Positions 1,691-25,072 of a stretch of DNA of 29,615 nucleotides are shown piece after piece. The stretch spans positions 1 to 29,615 of the forward strand of contig CBDBIJ010000028.1 in assembly GCA_965205655.1 (NCBI GenBank), written 5' to 3'. Below the pieces are notes generated by a model, which was given only the letters and a program-made list of their open reading frames with translations, was not told the origin of the DNA and ran no database searches. The translations under genes were made by a program, and so were the position numbers. Source of the stretch: Candidatus Latescibacterota bacterium (lineage in GTDB: Bacteria > Latescibacterota > UBA2968 > UBA8231). Numbering within the stretch: the stretch's first letter is position 1; each line of letters starts with the position of its first letter.

Positions 1691-2546
1691 CTATTTTTGC
1701 AGCGGCACCAGCTCGAAACCAGTCTCGACGAGGTTGCTCGGGTTGCCGGCCCTGTCCCGCGAGAAAAACATGAAGGTATAAGTTCCTAACAGCGCGTCCT
1801 TCGTGATTTTGAAGTTCCACGAAAAGCGACCGTCCCCCTTCTCCACCTCGCCGATATCGGGATCGCCGTCGTCGAAGAGAGGGTAGCGGACGCCGCCGGG
1901 TACGCCCGGTTTGCCCGGTTCCCCTTCTCCCCCCCCCAGCTGCCGTCCGGCTTCCGGAATTTGAAGTAGACCGAATCGATATCGCCCAACCCTTGCCGGT
2001 CCGAGACCGAAATGCGCACCTGAACCGGATCGCCGGTCTGGCGCTCCAGCGTATCGGCGTGTCGGCCTCGAATAGAATGGGCGCTTCGTTTTCCAGATAT
2101 ATCTCCTTCGTCAACATCTTCGACCCGCCGGCACTGGCATCCACGGCCTGAAACTGGAGCGTCTGATTCCCCAGGAATCCCGCCGCCAGAGTCGAGTCGA
2201 ACATCGCGCCGAATCGGGCGGTATTGGCGCTGACCGAATCCTGCCGGGACAGAGTCCAAACTTCATCGCCCCGCCGCAGACGCATCGCGACCTCGATCTG
2301 GCCGGCAAACTGATTGGAGTCCTGTACTGTCGCGGCAAACATCACCGGCTGACTGCCTGAAAACAGGGTATCCGGAGCCTCGACCGCGACTACCACGAGC
2401 GAGGTATTATTCTCTTCGAATATCGGCCCGTCGTTTCTGTTTTCCGCCTCGCCGGAGGAATTGTCGCCAACGCCGGTGGGACTGCTGTCGCCGCCGCAGG
2501 CACTCATCAGGCACAGCGCCACCAGGGTGAAGAGCCACTGCGCCAT
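1691..2546 (-). CDS. Lipoprotein of unknown function with beta-rich domains and an LFDDG...GDGxFS motif (~285 aa after correcting two frameshifts)
   Basis: AGGAG RBS, MAQWLFTLVALCLMSA-CGGDSSPTG lipobox. Frameshifts near 2057 and in the G/A runs near 1920-1937. The final frame reads YPLFDDGDPDIGEVEKGDGRFSWNFKITKDALLGTYTFMFFSRDRAGNPSNLVETGFELVPLQK* (stop at 1691). Confidence 0.7.
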
Positions 2547-2691
2547 CTGGCGATCTCCTGATATATTTTCTTCCGAATAAATCGTTGCCATATCGCCGTC
2601 GCGTCACTTCCTTCTAGATACTCCTATGTAGATTGGAAAGGCGCGAATACCTGGAACATACTCACGCACCCCGTGTCAACGGAATCAGTTG

Positions 2692-5600
2692 ATGCCCGCT
2701 ATCCGCCCCTTCGCCGCGCTCCTGATTCTCGCCCTGCTCACGGCCCCTTTCATTTCCCCCGCCACCGCTGGCACCGGCAAGATCGCCGCACCGTGATCGA
2801 CGCGGCCAGCGGCGCTTCTCTGCCCTTTGCCACCATCATTCTGGTCGGCGATCGGCTGGGCACCACCGCCGACGACGAGGGCCATTTCTTCATCCTCAAC
2901 CTCGCCCCCGGCACCTACACCCTCCAGGCCACCCACGTCGGCTACTCCCCCTACACCCTGGAAAACGTGTACGTCTCGGCCGACCTGACCACCACCGTGG
3001 AACTCGAGCCCGCCCCGGCCGATATCCAACTCGAGGCCGTCGTCGTCCGAGCCGCGCGTCCCCTCGTCGACAAGAACGCCACCAATGCCGTGCGCATCGT
3101 CGACGGCGCTGACCTGGAGCACTTGCCCGTCCGCGGCGTTCCAGATGTCCTCGCGCTGCAGGCCGGGGTCGTCGAGGACGAGGGTCGTTTCCACGTGCGC
3201 GGCTCGCGTAGCGACGAGGTGGGCTACTACGTCGAAGGCGGCAGCGTGCGCAATCCCATCACCGGCGCCAGCGCCGTCACCCTCATCGATGAGGCCGTCC
3301 AGGAAATCCAGCTCCAGGCCGGTGGCTTCAACGCCGAGTACGGCGGCGCCAATGGCGGTCTCGTGTTGCAGGAATTGCGCACCGGCGGCCCCGAGTGGAA
3401 GGTCGCCTTCCTCGCCGAGACCGACCGTTTCACCTCCCGCTATGACCGCCGCTTCAATACCTATTCCTACGGCCACAGCAACCAGGTAATTACCCTTGGC
3501 GGCCCCGTGGCCGGCCGGCGCTCGATCCGCGCCTTCGCCGCCTTGCAGCGCCGGGCGCGCGATTCGCGCGCCGTCTTCTGGGACGGCTTTGCTTTCTCAG
3601 ACCTGGTCGATTCCGGCGACCGGGGAGGACGCGTCCACTGGACCGATCCCAGCACCCCCGATACGGTCGGCGCCCTGATCATGCGCCCCGGCAACATCGA
3701 CCACACCGGCCGCGAGGCCTACGACTTCAACGGCACGCTGCTGTTCAACAACACTCCGGTCCAGGTGCGCCTCGCCGCCCTCCTCTCCGTCGACGACCTC
3801 GAACTCAACCAGGCGCCGGTGCGCAACATGCTCAACCTGGAGCGCCAGCCCGAAGCCCGGCGCACCTCCGCGCTCTTGAACGTGAGGGCCACCCACATCC
3901 TCGACCCTTCCATGTTCTACCAGGTGAACCTGAGTCTTTACGACCAGGACCGGCGATTCTTCGACCCGATCTTTGAGGACAATTTCATCGTTTACAACGA
4001 CAGCGTGGCGGTTGCCCGCGCCAGTGACGCCTTCATTTCCTACCCCAGCCAGGGCACCGTCCCACGCCCCTACGACCTCAGCGGCTTCCCATTCACCCGC
4101 CCCGGTACGCCCACTGCCTTTGGCAACGGCTCAGAGCGCGCCAGCTTTTTCGCGATCGAAGAGGACAACTATCTCGGCCTTGCCGCCGGGCTTACCAAGC
4201 AGACCCGTATCCATCAGCTCAAACTCGGCTTCGACTACCAGCGCTGGACCTCACGGCGCTACCTGGTGGTGCTCAACTCCATCCGCGCCGCCATCCACAA
4301 CACCTATCCCAACCTGGAGGCCGTCTACCAGCGCTACTACGACGGCGCCATCGGCCAGGACGCCCTCCTCGACGAGCTGCTCGCGGCGGCCTCGAGCGCG
4401 CCGGAGGATGAGGGGGACCTGAGTGATTTCAAGAACCTCATTCGCCAGAACAGCCAGGCCGACTTCTACGGCTTCGACGAATTCGGCCGGCGGGACGAGG
4501 CAGCGGGACTGGAAGCCCCGCGCCATCCCGTGCTGGCCGCTGCTTACCTCCAGGACAAAGTCGAATACCGCGACCTGGTCCTCAACGCCGGCATGCGCTG
4601 GGACTACTTCGACGTCGACAGCTTCCGCTTCACCGATCCGGCCGCACCGGTCCGCCTCGCGGAACAGACGACCGTCGACCTGACCTCCATGCGCCCCACC
4701 CGCACCTTCCTCGAATTCAGCCCGCGCCTGGGCCTCTCCTTCCCCGTGTCGGCGCGCACCGTGTTCCACATCCAGTACGGGCGCTTCGCCCAAATGCCTC
4801 GCCTGCGCGACATGTTCACCGGAGGTGCCGCCCTTGCCCTCGAAGTGGCCGGCGGCAACTTCATCCGCTTTCCCACTGCGTTCGACGTCGAGCCCATCCG
4901 CACTACTCAGTACGAGATCGGTCTCGGGCACCAGTTCGCCACGACCGCCTCCTTCGACCTGAGCGGCTTTTACCGCGACGTCAAGGGCCAGCTGCAGGTG
5001 CGGCGCCAGCAAGTGACTCAGAGCGCCGTCGACGCCGGGGCCTACAACTACCTTGCCAACGCCGACTTCGCCACGACCAAGGGGGTGGAACTGGTCTTCA
5101 AACTCAGCCGTATCCGCCGTCTTCAGGCCCAGTTCAACTACACCCTCTCCGACGCCCGGGGCACCGGCTCCACCGTCAACTCCGGCATTGCCGGCATTGA
5201 GAACAACGCCAACTTGCCCACTGTCGTCTCGCCCCTCGACTTCAACCAGACCCACCGCGGCAGCGCCTACCTGGACTACCGCTTCGGGCCCGACGAAGGC
5301 GGCGCTGTGCTGGAGCGACTGGGCCTCAACCTGCTCCTCCGCTTCACCAGCGGTCACAACTACACGCTGGCCACCGGGTCCGTCGGCCAGCGCGGTCGGG
5401 AGCTGGGCGCCATCCTCTCCAGCGACGACCCCCGCGCCCGCCAACCCCTCGAACCCATCAACCGCTCCACCACCCCCTGGACCTTCGCCGCCGACCTGCG
5501 GGTGGACAAGGCATTCCCTCTCCTCGGGGTCAGGGCCTGGGCCTACGTGTACATTCAGAACCTCTTCAACCGCCGCAACGTCATCAACGTCTACAACCGC

Positions 5601-5801
5601 ACCGGCAACGATCAGGACGACGGCTTCCTCACCGATCCCGAGCTGAGCGGCAAAATCGTCGAGGCCAGCGGCGGCGAGCAGTACCGACAACTCTACGAGC
5701 AGATCAACCTGATCAATCGCCAGCACTACTGGTTCACCGAGGGCGGCGATCTCTACGGGGAACCACGCCAGCTCCGTTTCGGTCTGAAATACGAGCTGTG
5801 A
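2692..5801 (+). CDS. TonB-dependent receptor with an N-terminal carboxypeptidase-regulatory-like domain (~1036 aa; one frameshift near 2788)
   Basis: ATG 2692 gives the signal peptide MPAIRPFAALLILALLTAPFISPATA-GTGKIA[G]TVID; one missing G joins the long ORF. Motifs: G..TTADDEGHFFILNLAPGTYTL..THVGY, plug HVRGSRSDEVGYYVEG and GGFNAEYG, barrel YLQDK/GMRWDY/FSPRLG/QNLFN, C-terminal RQLRFGLKYEL. Confidence 0.92.
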
Positions 5802-5813
5802 ACGGTGCCTTGC

Positions 5814-8800
5814 ATGAGCCGAACGCGTAACTTCCACTTTCTCTTCTCGGCGCTGATCCTGACACTCGCCCTCGGCGCCATTCCGGCCCGCGGCGCCTTT
5901 CCGGCCCGCGGCCGCCCTGCCCTTTCTCTCACCAGCGCCGCCAAAGTGACCCAGGACCTGAGCCTGGGCCGGCGCGCCCTGATCAACGTCAACAATATCT
6001 CGATGTGGTTCGCCCGGGACGGTTTCTCGGGCCACAATCCCCTGACCGACACCCCCGGCACCATCTTCCCGCGCTCCACCTCCAACATCGTCTTCCAGGA
6101 TGGTCTGGTCTGGGGCGGACGCGTCTTCGACGGTGACTCCCAGCAAGTGCGCGTCGGTGGCCAGACCTTCCGTATCGGCACTGTACCCGGCCGCATCCTC
6201 CCCGGGGGCACGGCCCAGGATCCCGGTGACCCACTAAACCGCATCTATCGCATCCGTTCGGACTACCGCCGTGCCGACCTGCGCCTGGACACAGCCGAGC
6301 TTTTGGGACAAGACGAAGTCTCGGAGGCAGACATCGAGCGCGTGCGCGCCCAGTACGAGAAGGATTGGCGCGAGTGGCCCTGGGAGTGGGGAGCCCCCTT
6401 CTACGATCGGGACGGCGACGGCGCCTACGACCCGCAAGTCGACGAGCCCTCTTTCCGCGCCGCCGACTGCGGTCAGACGCCCGATCTGTGCGTCAGCCGC
6501 GCCGACCAGGTGGCCTTCTTCATCTTCAACGACCTGGACGAGGCCGCCACCATTTCGTTCCACGGCTCCCGTCCCATCGGACTCGAAGTGCAGGTGACGC
6601 TGTGGGCCTACGCCCGCACTGACCCTCTGGGCGACGCGCTCTTCAAAAAGTTCACCATCCTCTACAAGGGCGCGGCCTCCACTCCGGACGACGCCCGCAT
6701 CGAGGACCTCTACTTCGCCCAGTGGGCCGACACCGATATCGGCGACTTCAGCGACGACTTCGCCGGCGCCGACACCACGCTAAGCCTGGGCTACGGTTAC
6801 AACGCCGAAGAGGAAGATCCCCGCTACCGGGCCTTCGACCTGCCGCCGCCGGCCGTGGGCTATGACTTCCTCCAGGGACCCATCGTCCCCCACGCGGCGG
6901 GCGAGGCCGTCTTCAACTTCCGCCGCCGCCCCGGCTATCGTAACCTGCCCATGACTTCTTTCGTCTACTTCGCCTCTGGCAGCGGCATCGACGATCCCCA
7001 GTTGGGCGCCTATGTCGGCACCGAGGAGTGGTACAACCTGCTGCGCGGCTTCCAGCCCCAGCCCGACGTCGACAGACCCGTGCCCTACACCAACCCCCTC
7101 ACCGGCGAGGACACCTTCTTCGCCCTCGACGGCGATCCGCGCCGCGACAGCGGCTGGACTGACGGCATCTCCCTTCCAGCCGGGGACCGCCGTATTGTTC
7201 TGAGCACTGGCCCGGTCGCCATGGCCCTGGGCGACACTCAGAAAGTAGTCGTCGCCCTCCTCGGCGCCCTTGGTGGCGACCGGCTGCGCAGCATTTCCCG
7301 GCTAAAATTCAACGACCGTTTCGTCCAGGACGCCTACGATCGCGGCTTCGACGTGGGCGCCCCGCCCGCCCCGCCCAGGGTGCGCGCGGCGACCGAAGAC
7401 CAGACCATCGTTCTCGACTGGGGCCACGACCTGGAGGCAGTTCGCGCCACCGAGGAAGGTGTGACGCCCCCCTTCCGCTTCCAGGGCTACAATCTCTACC
7501 AGTTCCCCACGGCGAGCCCCGACCTTTCCCGAGCCCGAAAACTCGCCACCTACGACGTCGTCGACGGAGTCACTGCCATCCTCGGCCCCCAGTTGGACGA
7601 GGCCTCCGGCCTGATTGTGCACACGCCGCTGCAAATCGGCCGCGACTCGGGCTTGCGCTGGGTCGCTCGCATCGCGCGCGACGCCTTGCGCAACGCGCCT
7701 CTGTTCAACGGCCAGCCCTACCACTTCGCCGTCACCGCCTACAGCCACAACGCCGATCCGGAGGCACTGACCGCTGCGCTGGAATCGGCACCCCAGCGCC
7801 TCACGGTTGTGCCGCAGCACCCATCGCCGGGTTTCCGTCGCTCGGCGGAGTTCGATACCCACCTGCCGGTCGTCCACACTCGTGGCTTCGGCGACGTCGT
7901 AGTCCAGCCCATTGTCGTCGATCCCGACCAGCTCGTCGACGCCACCTACACCCTCAGCTTCAACGAGGACCGCTCCTGGAACCTGGCGCGCGACGGCGTG
8001 CCCATGCTCGAAAACCAGCGCAACCTATCTCTTGACGAAAGCTACCTGGCCGTCGATGGCGTCCAGCTCAAAGTCGGTGATCCGGTATTCACCGCTCCCG
8101 CCACCTTTACCAGCGCCGCCGTGGTCGTCGACGCCGACCCGGCCGACGGCGACCTCGACTTCTGGGGCGACGCCATCGTATTCGACTATCCCGACGGTCG
8201 CGCCGCCACCTTCTGGGAAGGCGGCGGCACCGACGATCCTTTGCTGTTGGGCCGCGATCTCGAGATCCGCTTCACCGGTGTGTGGAACGAGGATGCCACC
8301 GAAATCGTCGCCGGCGGTTCCGTCGCCACCCTCGCCGGCGTCAGTCCCGGTTCGGCCGGGCGCGAGCTCGACGCCCATCCCTTCCGCCCGCCTGACGCCC
8401 CCGCAAGCGGCCCGTTTCTCCAGCGCGTGCCGTTCGAGATCTGGGATGTGGAGGATCCGGCGCGCCCGCGCCAGCTCAACGCTGCCATCTTCGACCGCGG
8501 CGCCGACGGCTCGCGCAACGAGGGCCGCGAGGCCTACCACCGGACCTACAACATGGCCGGGCGCGACTACATCACCGCGATCGCCACCGACTACGATCCG
8601 GAGCGCACTAACACTCTGACCGATCCCAACACCACCTGGCTGCTCGTATTCAGGCAAGGCGGCGCCTCGGTCTGGTCGACCGGAGACGTGCTGCGCCTCA
8701 ACTACCCCGGCCCGATCGTGCCGGGCGAGGACGAGTTTCAATTCACCACCGCGGCCCCGGTCTTCTCCGCCGTCCACGCACGCGAGGACATCGAAAGAAT

Positions 8801-9107
8801 CAATGTCTTCCCCAATCCCTACTACGGCGTCAACGAGGCCGAGACCAGCCGCCACAACCGCTTCGTCACTTTCAGCCACCTGCCGCCAAGAGCTGTCATC
8901 CGACTCTTCGATGTGTCGGGCAATCTGGTGCGGACCCTGCGGAAAGACGATCCCGACCCGTTCTTCCAGTGGGATCTCAACAACGACAACGCCCTGCCGA
9001 TCGCCAGCGGTTTCTACATCGCCCACATCGAAATGCCGGAGATCGGCGCCGCCAGAGTGCTGAAACTGGCTATCGTTCAGGAACAGCAGTTCCTGGAAAA
9101 CTTCTGA
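5814..9107 (+). CDS. Large exported protein (~1097 aa) with an Fn3-like module and a T9SS type-A-like C-terminal sorting domain
   Basis: Hydrophobic signal peptide; DRDGDGAYD Ca-binding-type loop; PPAPP..IVLDW..FQGYNLY..YHFAVTAY Fn3-like segment; C-terminal INVFPNPY...IRLFDVSGNLVRTL...WDL...ASGFYI...KLAIV. The start may be GTG 5805 or ATG 5814. Confidence 0.8.
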   Translation: MSRTRNFHFLFSALILTLALGAIPARGAFPARGRPALSLTSAAKVTQDLSLGRRALINVNNISMWFARDGFSGHNPLTDTPGTIFPRSTSNIVFQDGLVWGGRVFDGDSQQVRVGGQTFRIGTVPGRILPGGTAQDPGDPLNRIYRIRSDYRRADLRLDTAELLGQDEVSEADIERVRAQYEKDWREWPWEWGAPFYDRDGDGAYDPQVDEPSFRAADCGQTPDLCVSRADQVAFFIFNDLDEAATISFHGSRPIGLEVQVTLWAYARTDPLGDALFKKFTILYKGAASTPDDARIEDLYFAQWADTDIGDFSDDFAGADTTLSLGYGYNAEEEDPRYRAFDLPPPAVGYDFLQGPIVPHAAGEAVFNFRRRPGYRNLPMTSFVYFASGSGIDDPQLGAYVGTEEWYNLLRGFQPQPDVDRPVPYTNPLTGEDTFFALDGDPRRDSGWTDGISLPAGDRRIVLSTGPVAMALGDTQKVVVALLGALGGDRLRSISRLKFNDRFVQDAYDRGFDVGAPPAPPRVRAATEDQTIVLDWGHDLEAVRATEEGVTPPFRFQGYNLYQFPTASPDLSRARKLATYDVVDGVTAILGPQLDEASGLIVHTPLQIGRDSGLRWVARIARDALRNAPLFNGQPYHFAVTAYSHNADPEALTAALESAPQRLTVVPQHPSPGFRRSAEFDTHLPVVHTRGFGDVVVQPIVVDPDQLVDATYTLSFNEDRSWNLARDGVPMLENQRNLSLDESYLAVDGVQLKVGDPVFTAPATFTSAAVVVDADPADGDLDFWGDAIVFDYPDGRAATFWEGGGTDDPLLLGRDLEIRFTGVWNEDATEIVAGGSVATLAGVSPGSAGRELDAHPFRPPDAPASGPFLQRVPFEIWDVEDPARPRQLNAAIFDRGADGSRNEGREAYHRTYNMAGRDYITAIATDYDPERTNTLTDPNTTWLLVFRQGGASVWSTGDVLRLNYPGPIVPGEDEFQFTTAAPVFSAVHAREDIERINVFPNPYYGVNEAETSRHNRFVTFSHLPPRAVIRLFDVSGNLVRTLRKDDPDPFFQWDLNNDNALPIASGFYIAHIEMPEIGAARVLKLAIVQEQQFLENF

Positions 9108-9117
9108 GTCTCTTGCG

Positions 9118-10164
9118 ATGGTCAATGGTATAAGTCGCCCCCTCCACCTGCCCGCCCTCTTTCTGGTCGCCCTGATCTGGGCAGCTGAACTGCAGGCCGG
9201 CGGCCAGGAGCGCGCCGGCACGGCTGCCGCCCCCGAACTGCTCATCCCGGTGGGCGCCCGCGACATGGCTCTGGGCGGTGCCGCCATCGCCACCAGCGCC
9301 GGCATCGGTGCCCTCCACTGGAATCCCGCCGGCCTGGCCCGGGCCGGCTCCGATGCCGAGCTGCAGCTCTCGACCATGTCCTACCTGGCCGGTATCCGGG
9401 TTCACTACGCGGCGGTCGGCGGCCACTTCCGACGCTTGGGCGCCCTGGCCCTCAGTCTCAAGGCCCTCGACTTCGGCGCCATTCCCATCACCACTTCGAG
9501 TCATCCCGACGGCACCGGCGCCACCTATTCGCCCACCTTCCTGACCACTGGCCTGAGCTGGGCTCGCCCCCTCTCCGACCGCATCGTCCTGGGCGGCACC
9601 ATGCACTATATCTTCAACCGCATCGAGCGCGTCTCCGCCACCGGCCTCTCCTTCAACGCCGGCCTGCAATACGCCGACCTTGGCGACGTCGGTGGCCTGG
9701 ACTTGGGAGTTGTCATCAAGCACATCGGCTCGCGCCAGCAGTACGACGGCCCGGCCTTGCTGCGCCCCGGCCGCCTCGACGACCTGCGCCGCCCCGACGC
9801 GATCTACAAAGTCGAGGCCAGCTCCGCCGACCTGCCCTCCACCTTCGAGATCGGCCTGGGCTACCGCTACAATCCCGCCGCCTCGGGCCGGGCCGAACTC
9901 TCCCTCGCCTTCCAGCACCACAACTTCGCCAACGACCGGTGGAAATTCGGCTCTGAATATGTGTACCGGGATTTCTTCGCCGCCCGCGGCGGCTTGGACT
10001 ACTCCGACGACGGGGCCGACAACGCCCACATCTTCGGCACCAGCTTCGGCTTCGGCCTGCAGTTGGACCTGGGGGGGTTGGAGGACGTGCAGCTGGACTA
10101 CGCCTACACTACCGTCGACTTTTTCGACCCGCTCAACACCTTCACCTTCCGGGTCGGTTTCTGA
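9118..10164 (+). CDS. PorV/PorQ-family (FadL-fold) outer-membrane beta-barrel
   Basis: Signal peptide followed by AGTAAAPELLIPVGARDMALGGA...ALHWNPAGLA, the signature of PorV-like barrels. C-terminal DYAY...TFRVGF beta-signal. Confidence 0.85.
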   Translation: MVNGISRPLHLPALFLVALIWAAELQAGGQERAGTAAAPELLIPVGARDMALGGAAIATSAGIGALHWNPAGLARAGSDAELQLSTMSYLAGIRVHYAAVGGHFRRLGALALSLKALDFGAIPITTSSHPDGTGATYSPTFLTTGLSWARPLSDRIVLGGTMHYIFNRIERVSATGLSFNAGLQYADLGDVGGLDLGVVIKHIGSRQQYDGPALLRPGRLDDLRRPDAIYKVEASSADLPSTFEIGLGYRYNPAASGRAELSLAFQHHNFANDRWKFGSEYVYRDFFAARGGLDYSDDGADNAHIFGTSFGFGLQLDLGGLEDVQLDYAYTTVDFFDPLNTFTFRVGF

Positions 10165-11208: not shown

Positions 11209-11253
11209 GAGCTGTGGTTGAATCCGAGCAAGGACGGTGCTAGGAGATACGAC

Positions 11254-12044
11254 ATGGCCGAATACACCTTTCCGGATTTACGAGGCCTGGATACGGACTA
11301 CGACCGGGATGGCTATGCCATCATCCGCAATGTGTTGGATGCCGAACTGGTTCAGGAGTTGAATCGGCACGTAGACTGGCTGATGGAAAAGCACCCCGAG
11401 CTGCGGCCGGAAGGGCTCGGACACACGCTGATTGCGCAGGATCCCTTCTGGGTTCGTTTCTTGAGCGATCCGAATCTGCTGGATGTGGCCGAGGCTCTGG
11501 TGGGTCGCAATGTCGCCCTTTTTGCCGCCGACTACATCTGCAAGCCTCCTCAAGAGGGAATGGCTGTTCAGTGGCATCAGGACGGTCACTACTGGCCGCT
11601 CGAACCGATGGAGGTGGTCACACTGTCTGGTTTGCGGCGACGCGATGGGTAAAGGCCAACGGCTGCGTTCGGTTTATCCCGGACAGCCATCGCCTGGATC
11701 TCCAACAACACGCGGCGGAGACAGTTGAGAACAAGCTGCTCCGTGAGGTTGATCCTGCCGTACTCGATGAAAGCCTGGCTGTCGATATCGAGCTCGAGGC
11801 TGGTGATATTTCAGTGCATCACCCGCACATGCTGCACGGATCCGAGCCCAACACCAGCGGAGAATGGCGGCGCGGCGGGTCGATTCAGTACATGCCTGCC
11901 ACGACCCGGGTCACAGCCCCGGACTGGCCGTGCCTGTTTCTGTTCCGGGGCGAGGCGGTCGAGGGCGTCAACGCATACCGTCCACTCCCCAAATACATCG
12001 AAGGTGAGCATATGCCGTTTCACGACTGTGAGGCGTGGCAGTAA
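11254..12044 (+). CDS. PhyH-family dioxygenase (one frameshift near 11625)
   Basis: AGGAG RBS; DGYAIIRNVL, CKPP..WHQDGHYWPL; continues in the 11571 frame as WFA...NGCVRFIPDSH...LEAGDISVHHPHMLHGSEPNTSGEWRR. Confidence 0.85.
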
Positions 12045-16338: not shown

Positions 16339-17761
16339 GCTTTGTCCCGATCTTAGTTGAAACAGCACAGGCTCCAATCGTTACGTTTTGATACGAGAAG
16401 CCCGTTGGAAGAAGTCTCGCATCGGTAACAAAAGGAGCCTGCAATGAGCAAGCTAGTAGCACGGAAGAAGGGCGTCAAACGAACGGTGAGCATCGGCAAG
16501 GTAGCACCCGAGACTGCAGAGCAAGTAGAGGACCTGGATGGCCGGATCGAGGCGATCCAATGGCTGATTCCCTTGGGCTGCAGGCGGTCGCGGAGGAGCT
16601 GCAAAGAGCGGTCGTTGAGTTGGCTGGGCCGCGGTATCAGCGCAAGGGGTCGGATCAGCCGTTACGCCGCTGGGGGTCTCAGCTCGGGTCGGTGTACCTG
16701 GCCGACCAGAAACTACCCGTCGATGTGCCGCGGGTGCGCAACGTGGCCAACCATACCGAGGTCCCGCTGGATGTTTACCAGGCACTGCAGACGCCTCGAC
16801 AGAATGGACGAAGGTCTGCTGTTGCGGATGCTGAAGGGCATCGCCACGCGCAACTACGAGGCCTGCGCTGAGGCCGTACCCGAGGCCTTTGGTCTGTCAT
16901 CCTCATCGGTGTCCCGTCGTTACGTGAAAGGCACGGCTCGAAAGCTGGCTGAATTCCAGGAGCGATCCCTGGAAGGATATGATCTGGTGGCGCTATTCCT
17001 CGACGGCAAGAGCTTCGCGGACGAGGAGATCATCATCGCCCTGGGCGTCACCCTCGACGGACAGAAGATTCCTCTTGGCTTCGTGCAGGCGGCCACGGAA
17101 AACGAGCGCGTCTGCCGTCGCTTCCTGTCCGATCTGGTCGAACGCGGTATGCAGTACGAAGCCGGACTGTTGGTCGTCATCGACGGCGCCAAGGGGCTTT
17201 ACAAGGCGGTGATGTCGGTGCTCAAAGGACATGCCTGCGTGCAGCGCTGCCAGTATCACAAGCGCCAGAACGTCGTGTCGTATCTGTCCAAAAGCGAGCA
17301 GTCCGGTATCGCAAGATGGAGGCGGCCTACGGCAAACCGAGATACGAGGCGGCCAAGGCGGCACTGGACGCGCTCAAACCGGGCTTGAAGTTGATGAATC
17401 AGTCCGCCCTACACAGCCTCGAGGAAGGCATGGAAGAGACCCTCACACTCCATCGGTTGGGACTGACGCCGATGCTCAAGGATTCCTTCCGCACCACCAA
17501 CTGCATCGAGAACGTCAACAGTCTCCTGGAGCAGCTCACACACAACGTGCGACGCTGGACCAACTCATCACAGCGTCACCGTTGGGTAGCCACGGCACTG
17601 CTCGACATCGAACCACGTCTGCGCAGGGTCAAGGGCTATCGCCATCTGCCGATGCTCCGGCAAGCCATACAAGCCGAACTCGGCATCAAACAGCTCGCGA
17701 TGATGGGCCGACACACTCACCCGAGCCTGTGATTTGTTTCAACTGAAACTGGACCTTGACC
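16339..17761 (+). mobile_element. IS256-family element A (~1423 bp)
   Basis: Imperfect IRs share AGTTGAAACA...CACAGGCTC (left 16339-16374; right 17723-17761). 9-bp direct repeat GTTTCATTC at 16330-16338 and 17762-17770. The left boundary is uncertain by 1-2 nt. Confidence 0.9.
16444..17732 (+). CDS. IS256/Mutator-family DDE transposase (frameshifts near 16576, 16803 and 17308)
   Basis: AAGGAG RBS; GIATRNY, SSSSVSR, LFLDGK, VIDGAKGL, QRCQYHKRQN (CxxH), RTTNCIENVN. Confidence 0.9.
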
Positions 17762-18066
17762 GTTTCATTCGCCGAGAAGGGTATGCAGTCGTCTTTGCCG
17801 AACCCCGGCACGATCCGGTCAAACGGATCGACTATCTCTACCCGCAGTGACCCGCCGGACGCGTCGGCGTTGATCCACAATGCGTTGGGATCGATACTCA
17901 GCGGGTCCGTGGTGACAACCCCATCCCCGTCCGACTTCAGGCAGACCAGCCGGTCCTTTTGGATCTTCGCCAGATTGATTCCCTTCCGGGACTCCTCGCC
18001 ATGTCGCGGCGGCTCGCCGTGCAGACAGTTCGAGGCGCTGTGATAGACCCATATCTCCTCGTCGCG

Positions 18067-19451
18067 GAGCTAGGGTCAAATGGTGTGTAAACGACTCAGG
18101 CGGCGATCTTCTTCCTTTGCGCGATGGGTGATCCGTTTTCGTAGCACTCCCCGGCGTAGACGTCAGCCATGAGATGCGGTGCATTGAGTCGCCGGAATCG
18201 TTTCTCGGCCACCATCAGTACCCGCCAAATGAGGGCGGTGGCATTGGCCACCTTCCTGTATCGTTTGGCCGCATTGGTTCGCAACCGTACCGAAGCGAAG
18301 GGACTTTCGACGACGTTGGTGGTGCGCAGGTGTTGCCAGTGGGCCTCGGGAAAGTCGTAGAATGTCACCATACGGTCCCAATCGCGCTCAAGGATATCGA
18401 CGGCGTCTGGACACTCGCGGCGAAACCGTTTGGCGAATTGATCGCGACGTTTCGTCGCTTCCTGACGGGTCGGCGCGTACGGGAGCTGTGTCAGCAGGTG
18501 CCGCCCTTCGACCTGCACGCGTTTTGGCAGCTTATCCAGCACGTTCAGGATGCGGTGATTCCAGCATCGCTGTTCAGCCGTCTCCGGCCAGACCTCTGCC
18601 AGGGCCGCCCAGATACCCAGGTGCCCATCCGCCACCAACAACTTCGCCACGCTCAGTCCGCGGTCACGCAGATCGCGCAGTACGCCCGCCCACGACTCCT
18701 GTCGATTCGCGATAGCCCGGGACAATCGTCAGGACTTCTTTGCGCCCATCGCTCATCGCGCCGATGACCACCAGGAGAGCGGCTTTTTGCTTCTCGAGAC
18801 CGGCTTTGACGTAGATCCCGTCCGCCCAGGCGTAGACGAGCTCGCGGTCATCCAGTCGTCCAGTCGTCGGCTGCGCCAGGCGTTGTATTCGACGATCCAC
18901 TTCTCACGCAAACGAGCGATCGAGGACGCCGACAAAGGCGCTCCCTTGCCCAGCAGGCCGCGCAGCGCCAGCTCGAAGTCGCCCTGAGACAAACCGTGCA
19001 GGTAAAGCTCTGGCAGCAGCTGACCTGTTTCTTGGGTGCGCCGGGCGAACAGCGGCAGTACCGCACTCTCAAATCGCTCTTCCAGACCCCGCACCCGAGG
19101 GCGTTTCACCTCGATCGTGCCCGAGGTCAAGGACAGTCGCCGCCGCTTCCCGTACCCATTGCGGTAGCCGCCGGCTGCGTCCAACGGTGCCTGTCGCTCG
19201 TACCGTGACCGTCCCAGCGCATGGGTGACTTCTTCATCCAGAACCGACTGCATCAGCGACTGAATCTGCGAGCGTGTCCACTCTTCCAGCGTTTCGAACG
19301 TGGGCATGGACATTTCCGTCGTGCTCGGCTTAGGTTGTGCCATGGCGATTCTCCTCTTCCTGCCGGGATAGCCCCGGCGTTTGTGATGGCTAATTACAAA
19401 GGAAGGGTAGGATCGCCGTCTGTCTATTTCCACACCTTCTGATTATAGCTC
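18067..19451 (-). mobile_element. IS256-family element B (1385 bp)
   Basis: IRs GAGCTAGGGTCAAATGGTGTGTAAA and (reverse complement) GAGCTATAATCAGAAGGTGTGGAAA match at 19/25. 8-bp TSD TCGTCGCG at 18059-18066 and 19452-19459. Confidence 0.93.
18096..19343 (-). CDS. IS256-family transposase (~412 aa; broken by an 8-bp duplication at 18851-18866 and an extra base near 18699)
   Basis: GAGGAG RBS; YRNGY, RPRVR, LYLHGLSQGDF, YAWADGIY, GYRES..SW, VADGHLG, QRCWNH, LRTTNVVES. Confidence 0.92.
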
Positions 19452-20614: not shown

Positions 20615-21458
20615 ATGCCCTCTACTACTCCGTTGCAACCGCACATAGGCGCGCTAATCGAAGACATCGATATCGCCGCGCCGATCGACGATGACACCTT
20701 CGCCGGGCTGCGAAAGGCGTTGGCCACTCATTCCGTGCTCGTGTTTCGCGGTCGCGAGATCACGGACGAGCAGCACGTCGCCTTCACCGAGGGCTTCGGC
20801 CGCATCGAGCCCACGATGCCGAGCGACCCTATCGGCGACGGCGGCCCGATCGGCGTCTTCACCAACGTCGACGACAGCGGCGAGATCATACCGCCTGACG
20901 ACGACCGCATGCTGTACCAGAAAGGCAATGACCTCTGGCATTCGGACGGCTCCTTCCGGCCAGTGCCTTTGCGCGGATCGCTCCTGTCCGCCAAGGCGGT
21001 CCCCCCCGAAGGGGGAGAGGACCGAATACGCCAGCGTGCGCGCGGCCTACGCAGCCCTGTCCGACGACAGGAAAAGGCTGCTCGAAGACCTGAGCGCCGA
21101 GCACTCCCTCGCGCATTCGCGGGCGCAGATCGCTCCCGATCTGGTCAGCGATGATTTCCTCAAAGACACGCCGCCTTCCGTTCATCCCCTTGTTCGTTCG
21201 ATACCGGAGACCGGCGACAAGGCCCTCCTCGTCGGTTCGTTCGCCTCCCGGGTCGTCGGCTGGCCGCTCGAGAAGGGCAGGGTGCTCTTGCGGGAGCTCC
21301 TCGAGGAGGCGACGCAGCCGCAATTCGTCTACCGTCACGAATGGCAACTGCACGACCTGGTGATGTGGGACAATTTCGGCTGTCTGCACCGCGGGCGAGA
21401 ATTTGACCGGGGCAGGCACCGACGGGTCATGCACCGCACGACCCTCGCAGGCGACTGA
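20615..21458 (+). CDS. TauD/TfdA-family Fe/2OG dioxygenase (~280 aa; extra G near 21019)
   Basis: PLQPHIGALIEDID, VLVFRG, WHSDGSF, PPEGGET, HPLVR, YRHEW..DLVMWDN..LHRG, RVMHRTT. Confidence 0.9.
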
Positions 21459-21541
21459 CGCCACCGGCGTCCTGCTGATGGCGGCTGGTCTTTTGCGTTA
21501 GCATGGACCATTTTTCTCGCAACCTGTACACGGAAACGTCC

Positions 21542-22372
21542 ATGCCCCGCATAGAAGACCGCGACTGGAGCCAGCTCTCTCTCGGCGATCGAGTTCAACA
21601 TCTCGAGGTGGAGGGCTACGTCATGCTTCCCGATCGGCTGAGCGCCAGTCACATTGTAGAGCTCAAGGAGCAGACGGCTCAATTCGAAACCATCCACGTC
21701 GACTACAGCGTTCATCAGCGCAGTAGGGGCGACATTCAGTTTGCCGGCGGCGCTATCACCGAGCTGATCGCCAACCCGCCGACGATCGAGTTCCTCGAAA
21801 TGTTGTGCGGCGACATCGTCGCCATGTCGTACGACTACACCCGCTCCGAGCCGGGGCACCCCGGCATCAGCCTCCACTGTGACGGTCAGCCCTGGGGCTC
21901 CGAGATTTTCGCAGCCGAATACACCTGTCCCAAGCTGATTCGAGTGCTCTACTATCTCGACGACCTCATCCCCGAAGTCTCGCCCTTCCGCGTGGTACCG
22001 CGCACGCACTTGAGCTTCCACAACGAGGCCAACCCCTACTTGCGTTACGAAGAGCACCCGGAGGAAGTGATGGTGACCTGCAAGGCCGGTTCGGCGTTGC
22101 TGTTCAACAACAATGTCTTTCACGGCAACTATCCCAACACGGGATCCTACGCGCGCGAATCGCTGCAGATCTCCTACCGCCCTACATGGGCCGGACCGGC
22201 CGAACCCATCGAGCCGTGGGATGCCGCCGAGGTGGCCAAGCTCTCACCGGCCGTGCGTCGACTCATGGGCGACCGTAGCAGCCGTATCTGGATTCCCGAG
22301 GCTGGCAACAAGCCGCCGGACATGCCGCGGGAAGCGCCCGGAATCAACCCGAGTCGCTGGAAGCGTCAGTGA
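21542..22372 (+). CDS. PhyH-family dioxygenase
   Basis: VEGYVMLPD, SLHCDG, VLYYLDDL, VVPRTH, KAGSALLF...FHGNYPN...R. Alternative start at 21503. Confidence 0.85.
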   Translation: MPRIEDRDWSQLSLGDRVQHLEVEGYVMLPDRLSASHIVELKEQTAQFETIHVDYSVHQRSRGDIQFAGGAITELIANPPTIEFLEMLCGDIVAMSYDYTRSEPGHPGISLHCDGQPWGSEIFAAEYTCPKLIRVLYYLDDLIPEVSPFRVVPRTHLSFHNEANPYLRYEEHPEEVMVTCKAGSALLFNNNVFHGNYPNTGSYARESLQISYRPTWAGPAEPIEPWDAAEVAKLSPAVRRLMGDRSSRIWIPEAGNKPPDMPREAPGINPSRWKRQ

Positions 22373-22416
22373 TAACCAGGTTGGATTACAACTCGTAGCC
22401 CAGGAGAGGATTCCCT

Positions 22417-23403
22417 ATGAAAATCGCCCTCGGTCTCGGCCCGGAACCCGATGCAGCGTCGGCTTTCGGCACCCAGTGCGGCGTCGAGCACGCCGTCGGC
22501 TTCTTCGGCCTTGGCCCCAAACCAGACCTCGCCATAGACGACGACGAGCAGCCATTCAGTCGCCAGTCGCTGGCCGCTACCAAGGCGGCCTACGAAAGCA
22601 ACGGCTACCAGCTCTCGGTGATCGAGTCCCGGCCGCCGCGGGAGAAGATCATGCTCGCGCAGCCCGGGCGCGACGAAGAAATCGAGGTCGTCTGCGAGTT
22701 CATCCGCAACATGGGCGCCGTCGGTATCCCCGTGTGGTGCCCGGCCTGGATGCCCGTCCACTTCGTCATTCGCACGTCTGAGGTCACGCCAACCCGCGGC
22801 GGAGCGAAAGTAACGGCTTTCGATCTTGAGGAGTTCAATCGAACCGCCCCGCCTCACGAGCACGGCGAGGTCACCGAAGAGGATCAGTGGGACAACCTTA
22901 AATATTTTCTCGAGCGCGTCGTGCCCGTCGCCGAAGAGGCCGGGGTGAAGCTCGCCATGCACCCCGACGATCCGCCACTCTCGCCGATTCAGGGCGTCGC
23001 CCGCATCATCAGCAGCGTCGACAACTACCAGAAGATGCTCGACCTCGTCCCCAGCCCTGCCAACGGCATCGGCCTGTGCCAAGGCAACTTCGGCTTGATG
23101 ACCGACGACCTGCCCGGCGTCATTCGCCACTTCGGAGAGCAGCAGAAGATCCACTTCGTCCACTTCCGCGACATCCGGGGCACACCCGAAAAGTTCGACG
23201 AGGCCTTCCACGACGACGGCAAGCACGACATGGCCGAGTGTGTCCGCGCCTACCGCGACGTCGGCTACCAAGGCGTCGCGCGGCCGGATCACTTCCCGCG
23301 CATGACGTATGCGGACTTCGAGGACGAGCACGAAATCGAGCGCCTCTTCGCCATCGGCTACATGAAGGGGTTGATCGAAGCGGTTTACAGCGAGCTGGAC
23401 TGA
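22417..23403 (+). CDS. uxuA: Mannonate dehydratase (UxuA)-family protein
   Basis: AGGAGAGG RBS; WDNLKYFLERVVPVAEEAGVKLAMHPDDPP, NGIGLCQGN, IHFVHFRD, RPDHFP, FAIGYMKG. The substrate may differ from mannonate. Confidence 0.85.
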   Translation: MKIALGLGPEPDAASAFGTQCGVEHAVGFFGLGPKPDLAIDDDEQPFSRQSLAATKAAYESNGYQLSVIESRPPREKIMLAQPGRDEEIEVVCEFIRNMGAVGIPVWCPAWMPVHFVIRTSEVTPTRGGAKVTAFDLEEFNRTAPPHEHGEVTEEDQWDNLKYFLERVVPVAEEAGVKLAMHPDDPPLSPIQGVARIISSVDNYQKMLDLVPSPANGIGLCQGNFGLMTDDLPGVIRHFGEQQKIHFVHFRDIRGTPEKFDEAFHDDGKHDMAECVRAYRDVGYQGVARPDHFPRMTYADFEDEHEIERLFAIGYMKGLIEAVYSELD

Positions 23404-23420
23404 GAAGTCCGCCAGCTATT

Positions 23421-24182
23421 TTGCGCATCCTTACCGAATTCGACCTCGATTTTTTCCGTCACAACGAATATGTCGTTCGCACTGACCTCGTAACGCCCGA
23501 CGAAGTGCGGGAGTTCGTTGAGCTCTTCAGCGCCGACCGCAAGATCGTGCCGCTTCGATGGGCTCGCCGCGGCACCCAGGACGGCAACTACGACGCCCTC
23601 GTCACCTCGCCTCAATTCGATACAGTCATCCGCCATCCCCTCATCCTGCAGGCCGTTGAAGAGCTCATGGGGGGGGCCGTCTGCTTCGGTGAAATCGGCA
23701 TCCGCTTCATGGGCCCGTACGACGGCGAACTGAAACAGTCCTGGCACCGGGACAAGCTACACTGGCCCGAGCATCCCTTTCGCATGGACTACATCCAGCT
23801 CATGCTCTACCTTGCGGACGTTGACGAGACGACCCACTGCTTCTCAGTGTCTCCCGAGTCTGTCGATGAACCGATTCTGGAGGATACGGCGAAACAGCTC
23901 GAACGCGGCGGCGGCGTTGACATCCACGGCCCTGCCGGAACAGTCTGTCTCTTCAACGTATCGGTGTTGCACACTGCCACGACGCGACCTACGCAGAGCG
24001 AGCGCTTGTCCGTGCAGGTCTACTACGGACACCGAGCGCGCGCCTACCTGGCCGACGACTCGGTAATTCCCCCTATGTTTTGGAAGGACCACCCCGACCC
24101 CGAAGTGCGAGCCTTCTACGGCAACATCAACGAGATCACTCGCATTTACTTGCCCGCATTCGGGATGGATGAGCCGACGTGA
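23421..24182 (+). CDS. PhyH-family dioxygenase
   Basis: The track ORF 23076 overlaps uxuA; plausible protein begins at TTG 23421 (start uncertain). WHRD, QLMLYLADVD, PESV, GPAGTVCLFN..VLHTA...R. Confidence 0.8.
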   Translation: MRILTEFDLDFFRHNEYVVRTDLVTPDEVREFVELFSADRKIVPLRWARRGTQDGNYDALVTSPQFDTVIRHPLILQAVEELMGGAVCFGEIGIRFMGPYDGELKQSWHRDKLHWPEHPFRMDYIQLMLYLADVDETTHCFSVSPESVDEPILEDTAKQLERGGGVDIHGPAGTVCLFNVSVLHTATTRPTQSERLSVQVYYGHRARAYLADDSVIPPMFWKDHPDPEVRAFYGNINEITRIYLPAFGMDEPT

Positions 24183-24274
24183 TCTCGGGCTTGGTGTCCG
24201 GCGAAAGGGCGCCTTCGAATCCTTGCTGGTGGGAGAGGATGTCTGATCCGGAACCTGATTCGGATTCCCGCCCG

Positions 24275-25072
24275 TTACCTGCCCGGGTGAACCGTGGGTT
24301 CCCGACGGGGATCGGCTGCCACCTCGGAGTAAAACAGGCGCTGGGCGGGCGTCATACGCTCTAGCGCTTCCTTCGGTGGCCAGTAAGCTCGCCACTTCAT
24401 GCCTGCGTGGTTGTATTTGTAGAACAGATTCACGCGCTCGCGGTCGCTGTTCCAGGGAACCGCGCCGTGGGCCAGCGCCTCGGTGAAGATGACGACCGAA
24501 CCGGCCTTGCACGGCACCGAACGCAGCGCCGAGTTGTCGAGCTTGCCATCCTTGAACTCACGCATATCGCTTGGGGTGGGAAAGTGCGCGTTGTGGCTGC
24601 CCGGGACGCAGACGAATCCGCCTTCCTCCTCGCTCACGTCCGTCAGGTTGAAGGACACGACAGTGTGGCCGGCGAAGATCTGCCCGTTGAAATGGTGGTA
24701 CATGAAGTTCGGGTCTACGCCGCCGCCGCCGCCGTGCAGGTTCAGGCCGCCAAAACCCTTGCGTCGAATGCGGGCATAGGTGACTTCGAGCCGCAATTGA
24801 GGACTGATGATCTCGGAGAGGATGCCGATGACTGGTGGCAGGTCGATCAAGTCTGCAAACATCGGGCCTATGCTGGTCAGGTCTCCGACGCCGATCTCGC
24901 CGGGCTCGGGTTCGTAATGGGAAACCCCAGTGGGTAGCTGATCTCGGGGAGTGTCGATTAGCTCATGGAGGGCGTCGATCAGCCGTTCGCAGTCGTCGCC
25001 TGCGAGCACATCCTCGACGACGAGGTAGCCGGCAACATCAAAGAGATATTTCTCCCCGTCGGTCATTATCAT
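24275..25072 (-). CDS. PhyH-family Fe/2OG enzyme with an HxG instead of HxD motif
   Basis: YLFDVAGYLVVEDVL, LNLHGGGGG, FNLTDV, GGFVCVPGSH, CKAGSVVIFTEALAHG..PW...R. The start may be 25066. Confidence 0.85.
   Translation of the reverse strand: MIMTDGEKYLFDVAGYLVVEDVLAGDDCERLIDALHELIDTPRDQLPTGVSHYEPEPGEIGVGDLTSIGPMFADLIDLPPVIGILSEIISPQLRLEVTYARIRRKGFGGLNLHGGGGGVDPNFMYHHFNGQIFAGHTVVSFNLTDVSEEEGGFVCVPGSHNAHFPTPSDMREFKDGKLDNSALRSVPCKAGSVVIFTEALAHGAVPWNSDRERVNLFYKYNHAGMKWRAYWPPKEALERMTPAQRLFYSEVAADPRREPTVHPGR

Follow-up and report, generated by a model that had tools for sequence, protein, structure and literature searches.

SusC/SusD and BtuB/BtuG are transporter-lipoprotein pairs of Bacteroidia, SusD acting as a lid, and in HasA/HasR a diffusible hemophore acts as scavenger and returns to its TonB-dependent transporter (TBDT). 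The subject of this work is a locus in which a TBDT is encoded next to type IX secretion system (T9SS) elements. It lies in a window of 29,615 nucleotides, the whole stretch of DNA analysed (contig CBDBIJ010000028.1, C28, of assembly GCA_965205655.1 from a Candidatus Latescibacterota bacterium; host genome assembly 4.0 Mb, 84% complete), and consists of three plus-strand genes, here called the triad, for a TBDT, a large secreted protein (the cargo) and a small barrel protein.

PorV is described as a shuttle for type A C-terminal domains (CTDs) (PMC10202324, PMC8754138), which are said to use one common PorV (PMC12618676). PorU and PorZ retain their CTDs and remain attached to PorV and PorQ, respectively, the cognate barrels being suggested to shield the CTDs from cleavage (PMC10202324, PMC11285876); cleavage sites sit in flexible linkers (PMC11969387). 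Type B cargo is retained on dedicated PorP/SprF carriers whose genes lie just downstream (PMC9143113, PMC12618676, PMC12635249), and retention is the rule for the known dedicated carriers (PMC9143113, PMC12635249). In the β-barrel assembly machinery of Bacteroidota, a FadL-type barrel (BamG) stands beside a large barrel and forms a platform holding a surface protein above it (PMC12578637).

Homology and structure models show the TBDT and the small barrel to be outer-membrane barrels and the cargo to bear a T9SS-type CTD. We consider it about 0.55 probable that the triad forms a single outer-membrane capture-and-import module, in which the cargo, uncleaved, is carried and retained by the barrel and acts as the capture partner of the TBDT. 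We infer the dedicated, cargo-keeping carrier from the precedents of retained CTDs (PorZ/PorQ, PorU/PorV, PorP/SprF) together with the gene order, and the capture role from the pairing of TBDT and cargo. Each part is of a known kind; no description of the triad was found in the literature searched, which left most subscription papers and all supplements outside, and there the combination of the three and the cargo family are undescribed.

Conserved order and co-inheritance of the triad

The preliminary description, made from the window alone, had pointed to three tightly packed co-directional genes, and the coordinates bear this out (intergenic gaps of 12 and 10 nt; Table 1). The same order recurs elsewhere, as that description had proposed to check. 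Among 11 relative loci the full triad was present in nine; one Ignavibacteria locus had cargo and barrel only, and in another locus the first cargo domain lay within a 1936-aa CTD protein. When metagenome loci were picked by their cargo (79 loci from the best 80 of 680 relatives; denominators are loci with enough flank), a TBDT stood directly upstream in 69/72 and a barrel directly downstream in 57/61. Within the phylum of an Ignavibacteria genome a cargo match was obtained for 114 of 401 genomes, and in 80 regions, 60 selected for strong and 20 for weaker matches among those listed, a TBDT preceded 73 of 81 cargo open reading frames (ORFs) and a barrel followed 69 of 79. Picking by the TBDT instead (84 places at E<=1e-50, reduced to 79 after five N-terminal fragments were dropped), cargo follows in 76; the three misses are a solo TBDT (L274), an operon whose TBDT and cargo lie about 24 kb apart (G055), and a contig end. 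The order still holds at about 30% identity and in different phyla. The preliminary description had placed similar triads in non-Bacteroidia genomes of the Fibrobacterota-Chlorobiota-Bacteroidota (FCB) group; they do occur across FCB lineages but are not confined to that part of the group, as distant triads are found in 5/5 GldM-positive genomes with weak cargo matches.

Of 151 genomes from the host's phylum, 78 have the cargo and 79 the barrel, in the same families (f1 51/63, f2 24/30, f3 0/19). Weak TBDT matches in this phylum uncovered further triad subfamilies in three of the four such regions examined (L282-L284). These other subfamilies (L282, L283, L284, L064:1-4777) have diverged cargos of 800-1150 aa and their own barrels, and some genomes of the host's family carry one beside the window type. 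Several genomes contain two or more diverged triad copies, the family of the host being mostly single-copy.

The trees of the three genes, for which the preliminary description had proposed a congruence test, largely agree. For 55 triads, TBDT and cargo share 33 of 52 splits, TBDT and barrel 40, and cargo and barrel 32, compared with about 0.2 for shuffled labels; two to seven conflicts occur among well-supported splits and the patristic correlations are 0.88-0.92. A single barrel gene serves two pairs at locus L060 (G147:C1 1328038-1341665), where the order is TBDT-cargo-TBDT-cargo-barrel, so that TBDT and cargo have duplicated as a pair. The two L060 cargos differ mainly in the middle domain, and a third TBDT copy stands alone in that genome (L274). 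In a close relative (L059/L278/L279, G055:C2 2650003-2682620) the TBDT is separated from the cargo by about 24 kb, with an insert having genes that by eye resemble a restriction-modification set, and about 2 kb lie between cargo and barrel; a second triad in this genome is intact.

Architecture of the three proteins

Table 1. Coordinates of the triad genes, the protein regions they encode and the frameshift site, as positions in the window.
Feature	Position	Strand	Remarks
TBDT gene (TonB-dependent transporter, ~1036 aa)	2692..5801	+	one-base frameshift near 2787
Frameshift site, one base	2786..2790	+	extra base in runs X1/X4; relatives intact
Cargo gene, 1097-aa secreted protein	5814..9107	+	ATG 5814, 12 nt past TBDT stop (5801)
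Cargo domain 1, residues 43-516	5940..7361	+	predicted galactose-mutarotase-type β-supersandwich and closing helix
Cargo domain 2, residues about 520-668	7371..7817	+	conserved β-sandwich, long hairpin 585-610
Cargo middle region, residues 670-985	7821..8768	+	variable insert about 760-950
T9SS CTD, residues about 986-1088	8769..9077	+	PorZ-like, invariant PNPY at start
C-terminal tail, 9 residues, QEQQFLENF	9078..9107	+	beyond last CTD strand; candidate signal for dedicated barrel
Barrel gene, 348 aa	9118..10164	+	10 nt past cargo gene

The barrel had been called PorV/PorQ-type, and this assignment holds: it matches the FadL-type outer-membrane family NF033709 with 148.6 bits (cut-off 90) and the PorV structure 6h3i_F in the Protein Data Bank at E 1.4e-8. 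It falls below the equivalog cut-offs for PorQ (NF033711, 74.8 against 220 bits), PorV (NF033710, 63.2 against 250) and PorV2 (47.2 against 325), and no match to the PorP/SprF family was obtained at E<=0.05. The host genome has 13 PorV-family matches in 12 ORFs. A profile built from triad barrels scores 462 bits on the window barrel and 93 on the next paralogue, and a tree separates the 33 triad barrels from nine paralogues of the host by a branch with SH-aLRT 100, the tree being a quick search in which several paralogues have long branches. Directly behind porU on contig C127 is the best PorV-family match of the genome (246.8 bits), which forms with it a canonical porU-porV pair. That the window barrel might be the genome's single housekeeping PorV, a possibility raised in the preliminary description, was rejected, the porU-linked PorV on C127 being a separate paralogue from which the triad barrels group apart.

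Other PorV-like genes of the host genome (G000 C110:48536-59915, C38:16246-19777, C147:15180-16607) carry additional fused domains (1034 aa, 475 aa) or stand behind CTD genes, namely 2266-aa and 523-aa ORFs on C110 and, on C38, a 571-aa CTD protein followed by two barrels. This suggests more private carrier-cargo pairs. Two near-duplicate loci (G000 C77:4410-7009 and C95:94-2526) share one gene order with the PorV-like gene last; a second strain in the assembly is possible.

The cargo is, in line with the preliminary description, a predicted exported non-lipoprotein of roughly 1100 residues: a Sec-type signal peptide is judged by eye, no Cys is found in the signal region read from ATG 5814, and only two of 125 triad cargos have a lipobox-like motif within the first 60 aa. 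The CTD was aligned to that of PorZ as a C-terminal immunoglobulin-like β-sandwich (model residues 991-1089 against 687-776 of 5m11; Z 12.3, root-mean-square deviation (rmsd) 2.1, 90 residues). By profile, the cargo matches the CTD of 5m11 at E 0.0062, and the PorZ family NF052228 matches residues 989-1092 at E 1.9e-6 with 26.7 bits against a cut-off of 260, covering the CTD only. The junction before it is modelled with 10-residue confidence means of 92-98 over residues 961-1000. Type B CTDs (TIGR04131, PF13585) gave no match on the cargo at E<=0.05. The label type-A-like, given to the CTD in the preliminary description, is fair but weak, and the domain has more in common with the uncleaved PorZ type than with a typical, cleaved CTD of type A.

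The cargo continues past the final strand of the CTD into a short tail, of which E1090 is nearly invariant. A barrel gene comes next in 143 of the 160 cargo ORFs with enough downstream flank, and the final residue is F or Y in 132 of these 143, counts whose rows include near-duplicates and kin. Among the same 160, 14 tailed or otherwise non-canonical cargos lack an adjacent barrel, and three full-length homologs with a canonical KKMxLLK CTD end have neither a TBDT nor a barrel as neighbour. Of the 41 CTD matches in the host genome, only the window cargo has the tail.

Apart from its CTD the cargo gave no profile signal, with no Pfam match, yet its relatives are numerous (6787, 3936 and 1756 clusters at 50% identity for E 1e-3, 1e-10 and 1e-30). 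The AlphaFold2 model (mean pLDDT 90.3, pTM 0.79) shows four parts; a Foldseek search with the whole cargo yielded low-TM matches only. Domain 1 resembles the N-terminal domain of enzymes of glycoside hydrolase (GH) families GH15, GH65, GH94 and GH116, dextran dextrinase and glucodextranase being among the matches. The best alignments were with 9ju0 (VIA-align Z 19.2, rmsd 3.5, 262 aligned residues, 9% identity) and 1ulv (Z 18.9); the GH174 fucanase 9k1g (Z 13.7) and galactose mutarotase 3mwx (Z 13.0) were also matched. Membership of GH15/65/94/116 was rejected, the alignments being limited to the N-terminal domain of those enzymes and their helical barrel missing: after residue 516 no (α/α)6 catalytic barrel is found and the model is almost wholly β. 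Alignment columns show an invariant acidic motif in domain 1 (W304-D306-x-D308-x-G310, D315, D320), which could bind calcium, and further invariant residues at D240, D335, D394, D458 and R460. In the ESM Atlas, domain 1 matches solely unnamed clusters (0.93-0.94). The supersandwich is also seen in stand-alone secreted proteins with immunoglobulin, PKD, dockerin or canonical CTD ends (L026, L062:6041-8320, L063, P0008, P0102), and in two f2 genomes a dockerin-type copy of domain 1 (that of L062 being the one scanned) lies just upstream of the triad.

We read domain 2 as fibronectin-III-like, Foldseek listing arrays of fibronectin type III (FN3) domains without an alignment at domain level. Conservation falls to 0.23-0.42 in the middle region, whose best score in the ESM Atlas (residues 670-985) was 0.82; among 37 homologs, Pfam finds CHRD in three and PSII_BNR, a BNR/YCF48-like propeller, in one as extras in this region.

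The TBDT begins with a CarboxypepD_reg-like extension (PF13715/PF13620, residues 40-125), followed by a plug (PF07715, residues 134-229; 26 bits, above the cut-off of 23.9). Its AlphaFold2 model (pLDDT 79, pTM 0.80) has 22 barrel strands counted from DSSP and long extracellular loops, and the top Foldseek matches are all TBDTs (E about 1e-25). It does not belong to the SusC family, since TIGR04056 scores 42 bits against a cut-off of 368.25 and the match is confined to residues 40-161. Some late extracellular loops (residues about 830-860 and 895-935) are conserved but predicted with low quality, which would fit loops that become ordered on a partner. TonB_C matches are present in the host genome.

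Pfam, the model and Foldseek thus agree with the TBDT of about 1036 aa that had been announced, but its frame is broken as assembled: the reading from ATG 2692 has a signal-peptide-like start and GTGKIA and stops after 33 codons, the main body lies in a different frame (ORF 2673..5801), and 2692..5801 is not a single open frame. Contigs of runs X1 (depth 2.6) and X4 (depth 8.2) contain one additional base behind 2787; no listed piece of runs X2 and X3 covers this position, and X1 is possibly the source sample. In the nearest relative the TBDT is intact (1034 aa, 83% identical). Because the missing base is present in two other runs and the relatives are intact, we read the break as probably an assembly error, the 1036-aa TBDT being probably right for the organism and not for the assembled sequence. 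A pseudogene as the main explanation was rejected in view of the base in two other runs, one of them at a depth of only 2.6, and of similar breaks upstream, where a divergent lipoprotein-like gene (1694-2591, minus strand) is broken over three frames and has intact homologs of 300 and 269 aa. Taken together, the two sets of breaks suggest that this region of the assembly contains indel errors.

Downstream, a Gfo/Idh/MocA gene begins 6 nt after the barrel; a different gene takes that place in the nearest relative. Searches of 30 window ORFs against Pfam otherwise gave many PhyH/TauD dioxygenase genes (955-1689, 11218-12044, the latter one gene as two ORFs, and 20691-25072), oxidoreductases, a dehydratase, a major facilitator superfamily gene and, around the triad, transposase fragments (DDE, Mutator; 46-402, 16444-19433). 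Promoter and terminator scans gave nothing above shuffled sequences. In other genomes, 19 scanned downstream neighbours of triads include GWxTD, PIG-L, multiheme, TPR, NHL, peptidase, sulfotransferase and CTD proteins. In several lineages (L141, L138, L112 and similar loci) the gene directly behind the barrel is repeatedly one for a GWxTD-domain protein; in others there are recurrent genes for PIG-L-family proteins, multiheme cytochromes, NHL proteins and TPR lipoproteins.

Proposed mechanism and alternatives

The absence of SusD and of any other T9SS gene from the window, stated in the preliminary description, was corroborated by genome-wide profile searches for SusD, SprA, PorU, the PorV family and CTDs, which on the window contig found only the barrel and the cargo CTD, and by Pfam on the window ORFs. 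SusD (PF07980) had no match anywhere in the 84% complete host genome, the positive control responding. A search of the genome for sprA, porU and porK-N, proposed at the same time, succeeded in part: sprA is present on contig C68 (open frame of 2083 aa), PorU has two matches over cut-off, one of them directly upstream of the C127 PorV-family gene, and 33 of the 41 CTD matches exceed the cut-off, but the motor genes were not recovered (see below).

We propose that the cargo is exported via Sec and then, very likely, through the SprA translocon of this genome. It would next be collected by the co-encoded barrel and not by the porU-linked PorV, and be retained with its CTD uncleaved, like PorZ on PorQ, a step that we regard as likely; a barrel that privately holds its cargo by the CTD fits the precedents of PorZ/PorQ, PorU/PorV and type B cargo on PorP as well as the tail of the subfamily. 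The F/Y-ending tail is probably part of a pairing code in the window subfamily. The surface-held cargo would, with somewhat better than even odds, take the part of a SusD lipoprotein and act as the capture partner of the neighbouring TBDT. Its supersandwich and FN3-like domains would bind the ligand or loops of the TBDT, and the variable middle domain would tune specificity. A glycan or glycoconjugate as ligand is a tentative suggestion, the supersandwich, which is common to carbohydrate-active enzymes, being counted in favour of a capture module; the plug would then be opened by TonB.

Several observations weigh against this proposal. The cargo CTD remains under the type A cut-off (TIGR04183, 18.4 bits against 23) and has no PF18962 match, a family that eight of 37 cargo homologs match at E<=0.001, two of them above cut-off. 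The fold match of domain 1 is at 6-12% identity and the periplasmic domain of YidC was also matched (Z 12.2-12.8), so that the fold match is no proof of sugar binding; the domain is found in ordinary CTD or dockerin proteins too (L026, the 759-aa protein of L062, P0008, P0102) and is therefore able to work without a TBDT. The distant triads L282-L284 have KFAVVR-like cargo ends and no tail, which makes the tail a subfamily trait; as a universal triad signal it was rejected. Some cargos lack both neighbours (L082, L089, L142, L221, L247, L254), others have a barrel and no TBDT (L027, L234), and there are the solo TBDT L274 and the split operon of G055. The 19 downstream neighbours include no glycoside hydrolase, unlike a polysaccharide utilisation locus. 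Agreement of trees and synteny is co-inheritance, as expected for any stable operon, and no proof of contact. Finally, GldL, GldM and GldN had no match in the incomplete genome and GldK only one below cut-off, where divergent homologs could escape (the GldN control had no match anywhere; the GldM search finds 103/401 in the positive-control sample), so that export of the cargo by the known energised route is not established.

A complex prediction that joined residues 676-1042 of the TBDT to residues 43-668 of the cargo (paired alignments of 102 rows), covering half a barrel only and run without controls, scored 0.25 (mark 0.32), which is evidence neither for nor against contact. Inter-protein covariation over 125 paired triads (effective number 81) was discarded, a few hub columns that dominate the top pairs being read as phylogenetic noise.

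Of the alternatives, the least improbable, though unlikely, is that the barrel-held cargo is a surface enzyme with a catalytic supersandwich, making the product that the TBDT imports and having little or no stable contact with it. The many invariant acidic residues of domain 1 (D240, D306, D308, D315, D320, D335, D394, D458, with R460), the catalytic supersandwiches among its fold matches (9k1g, 3mwx) and its reuse in stand-alone CTD or dockerin proteins, where enzymes are usual, would all suit an enzyme; yet the best matches (Z 17-19) are non-catalytic N-terminal domains whose catalytic barrel is missing in the cargo, the acidic motif could bind calcium instead, and the paired duplication at L060 better fits a matched pair. 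We give still less credence to a barrel whose sole task is to extract the cargo from SprA, after which the cargo is released or processed by PorU and acts as a hemophore-like scavenger. PorV does shuttle type A CTDs (PMC10202324, PMC8754138), the genome has its two PorU matches, and orphan cargos without an adjoining barrel exist. Against release, the dedicated carriers that are known hold on to their cargo (PMC9143113, PMC12635249), the CTD is PorZ-like with a confident junction before it, unlike flexible cleavage linkers (PMC11969387), and a 120-kDa protein would be costly as a diffusible carrier.

About equally doubtful as a released cargo is an accessory module of the envelope or of a T9SS that lacks GldKLMN, the TBDT-like barrel being a TonB-coupled part of the surface architecture or, for example, ejecting carrier-cargo pairs. 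SprA is present in 146/151 genomes of the host phylum and GldM over cut-off in 0/151, and GldM is likewise absent from all 94 genomes with strong cargo matches in the Ignavibacteria-genome-phylum sample (0/94); in these counts kin are not independent, divergent motors may escape, and lineage and absence of GldM are confounded. The mostly single-copy state in the host's family and neighbours with GWxTD, TPR and peptidyl-prolyl isomerase genes point the same way. So does PorF, which we take to be TBDT-like. It is listed as a T9SS component (PMC8754138). Family f3, however, has SprA in 19/19 genomes and cargo and barrel in 0/19, so the triad is not required for SprA, and as a general energiser of motor-less T9SS it was rejected; moreover, distant triads occur in all five GldM-positive genomes named above, and two or more diverged copies in several genomes are expected of substrate-specific importers. 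That the three genes are co-regulated neighbours without a shared machine, or the barrel an ordinary PorV, is very improbable: in some loci one member is missing or lies apart, but the order persists to about 30% identity and across phyla, and the canonical porU-porV pair lies elsewhere while triad barrels group apart.

If the capture-and-import module is real, it would join type IX secretion and TonB-dependent uptake, two hallmarks of Bacteroidota, in one machine, could explain surface substrate capture in FCB lineages without detectable SusD, of which the host genome is one, and would widen the rule of dedicated carriers, known from type B cargo, to PorV-like barrels. It also offers a hypothesis of function for a very large unnamed protein family (the 1756 clusters). 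A bolder version, which we hold to be speculative and somewhat short of even odds, is an old and widespread three-protein uptake machine of the FCB group, in which a T9SS-exported cargo with a tail-coded CTD is locked on a PorV-like barrel as the lid of the TBDT and is a counterpart of SusD free of a lipid anchor. Its close family is found mainly in lineages with SprA and PorU and without recognisable GldKLMN, which would imply a differently energised T9SS. SprA is nearly universal in the phylum and the known motor was not found.

Comparison with described systems

The SusC/SusD (RagA/RagB) and BtuB/BtuG systems share with the triad a CarboxypepD-like extension on the TBDT, a co-inherited surface protein encoded immediately next to it and duplication as a pair. 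In contrast to SusD, the partner in the triad is a non-lipoprotein, twice the size, mainly β and not TPR-helical, and probably T9SS-dependent; the triad TBDT lies outside the SusC family and conserved glycoside hydrolase neighbours are lacking. Membership of SusC/SusD was therefore rejected, TIGR04056 being far under cut-off and no SusD/RagB lipoprotein adjacent.

BamG-BamH provides an architectural precedent, a FadL-type barrel holding a surface protein over a larger barrel, although BamH is a lipoprotein, the large barrel is BamA, and neither a CTD nor a TBDT takes part. With the enzymes of GH15, GH65, GH94 and GH116 and galactose mutarotase-like proteins the cargo shares the fold of domain 1 and the helix that follows (Z 13-19), but at 6-12% identity, with large insertions and with no (α/α)6 domain after it.

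The type B pairs SprB-SprF and PG1035-PorP resemble the triad in the order of cargo and then carrier, in having one carrier per cargo and in anchoring by staying bound (PMC9143113, PMC12618676, PMC12635249); they differ in that the triad CTD is type-A/PorZ-like, the triad barrel belongs to the PorV/PorQ family and a TBDT is part of the unit. PorZ-PorQ and PorU-PorV of Porphyromonas gingivalis are similar in that a protein with a long, PorZ-like CTD has as its cognate a FadL-type barrel from the PorV/PorQ family. Here, however, the cargo is neither PorZ nor PorU, the barrel falls under the PorQ and PorV cut-offs, a TBDT gene precedes the pair, and the cargo continues beyond its CTD into an extra C-terminal tail.

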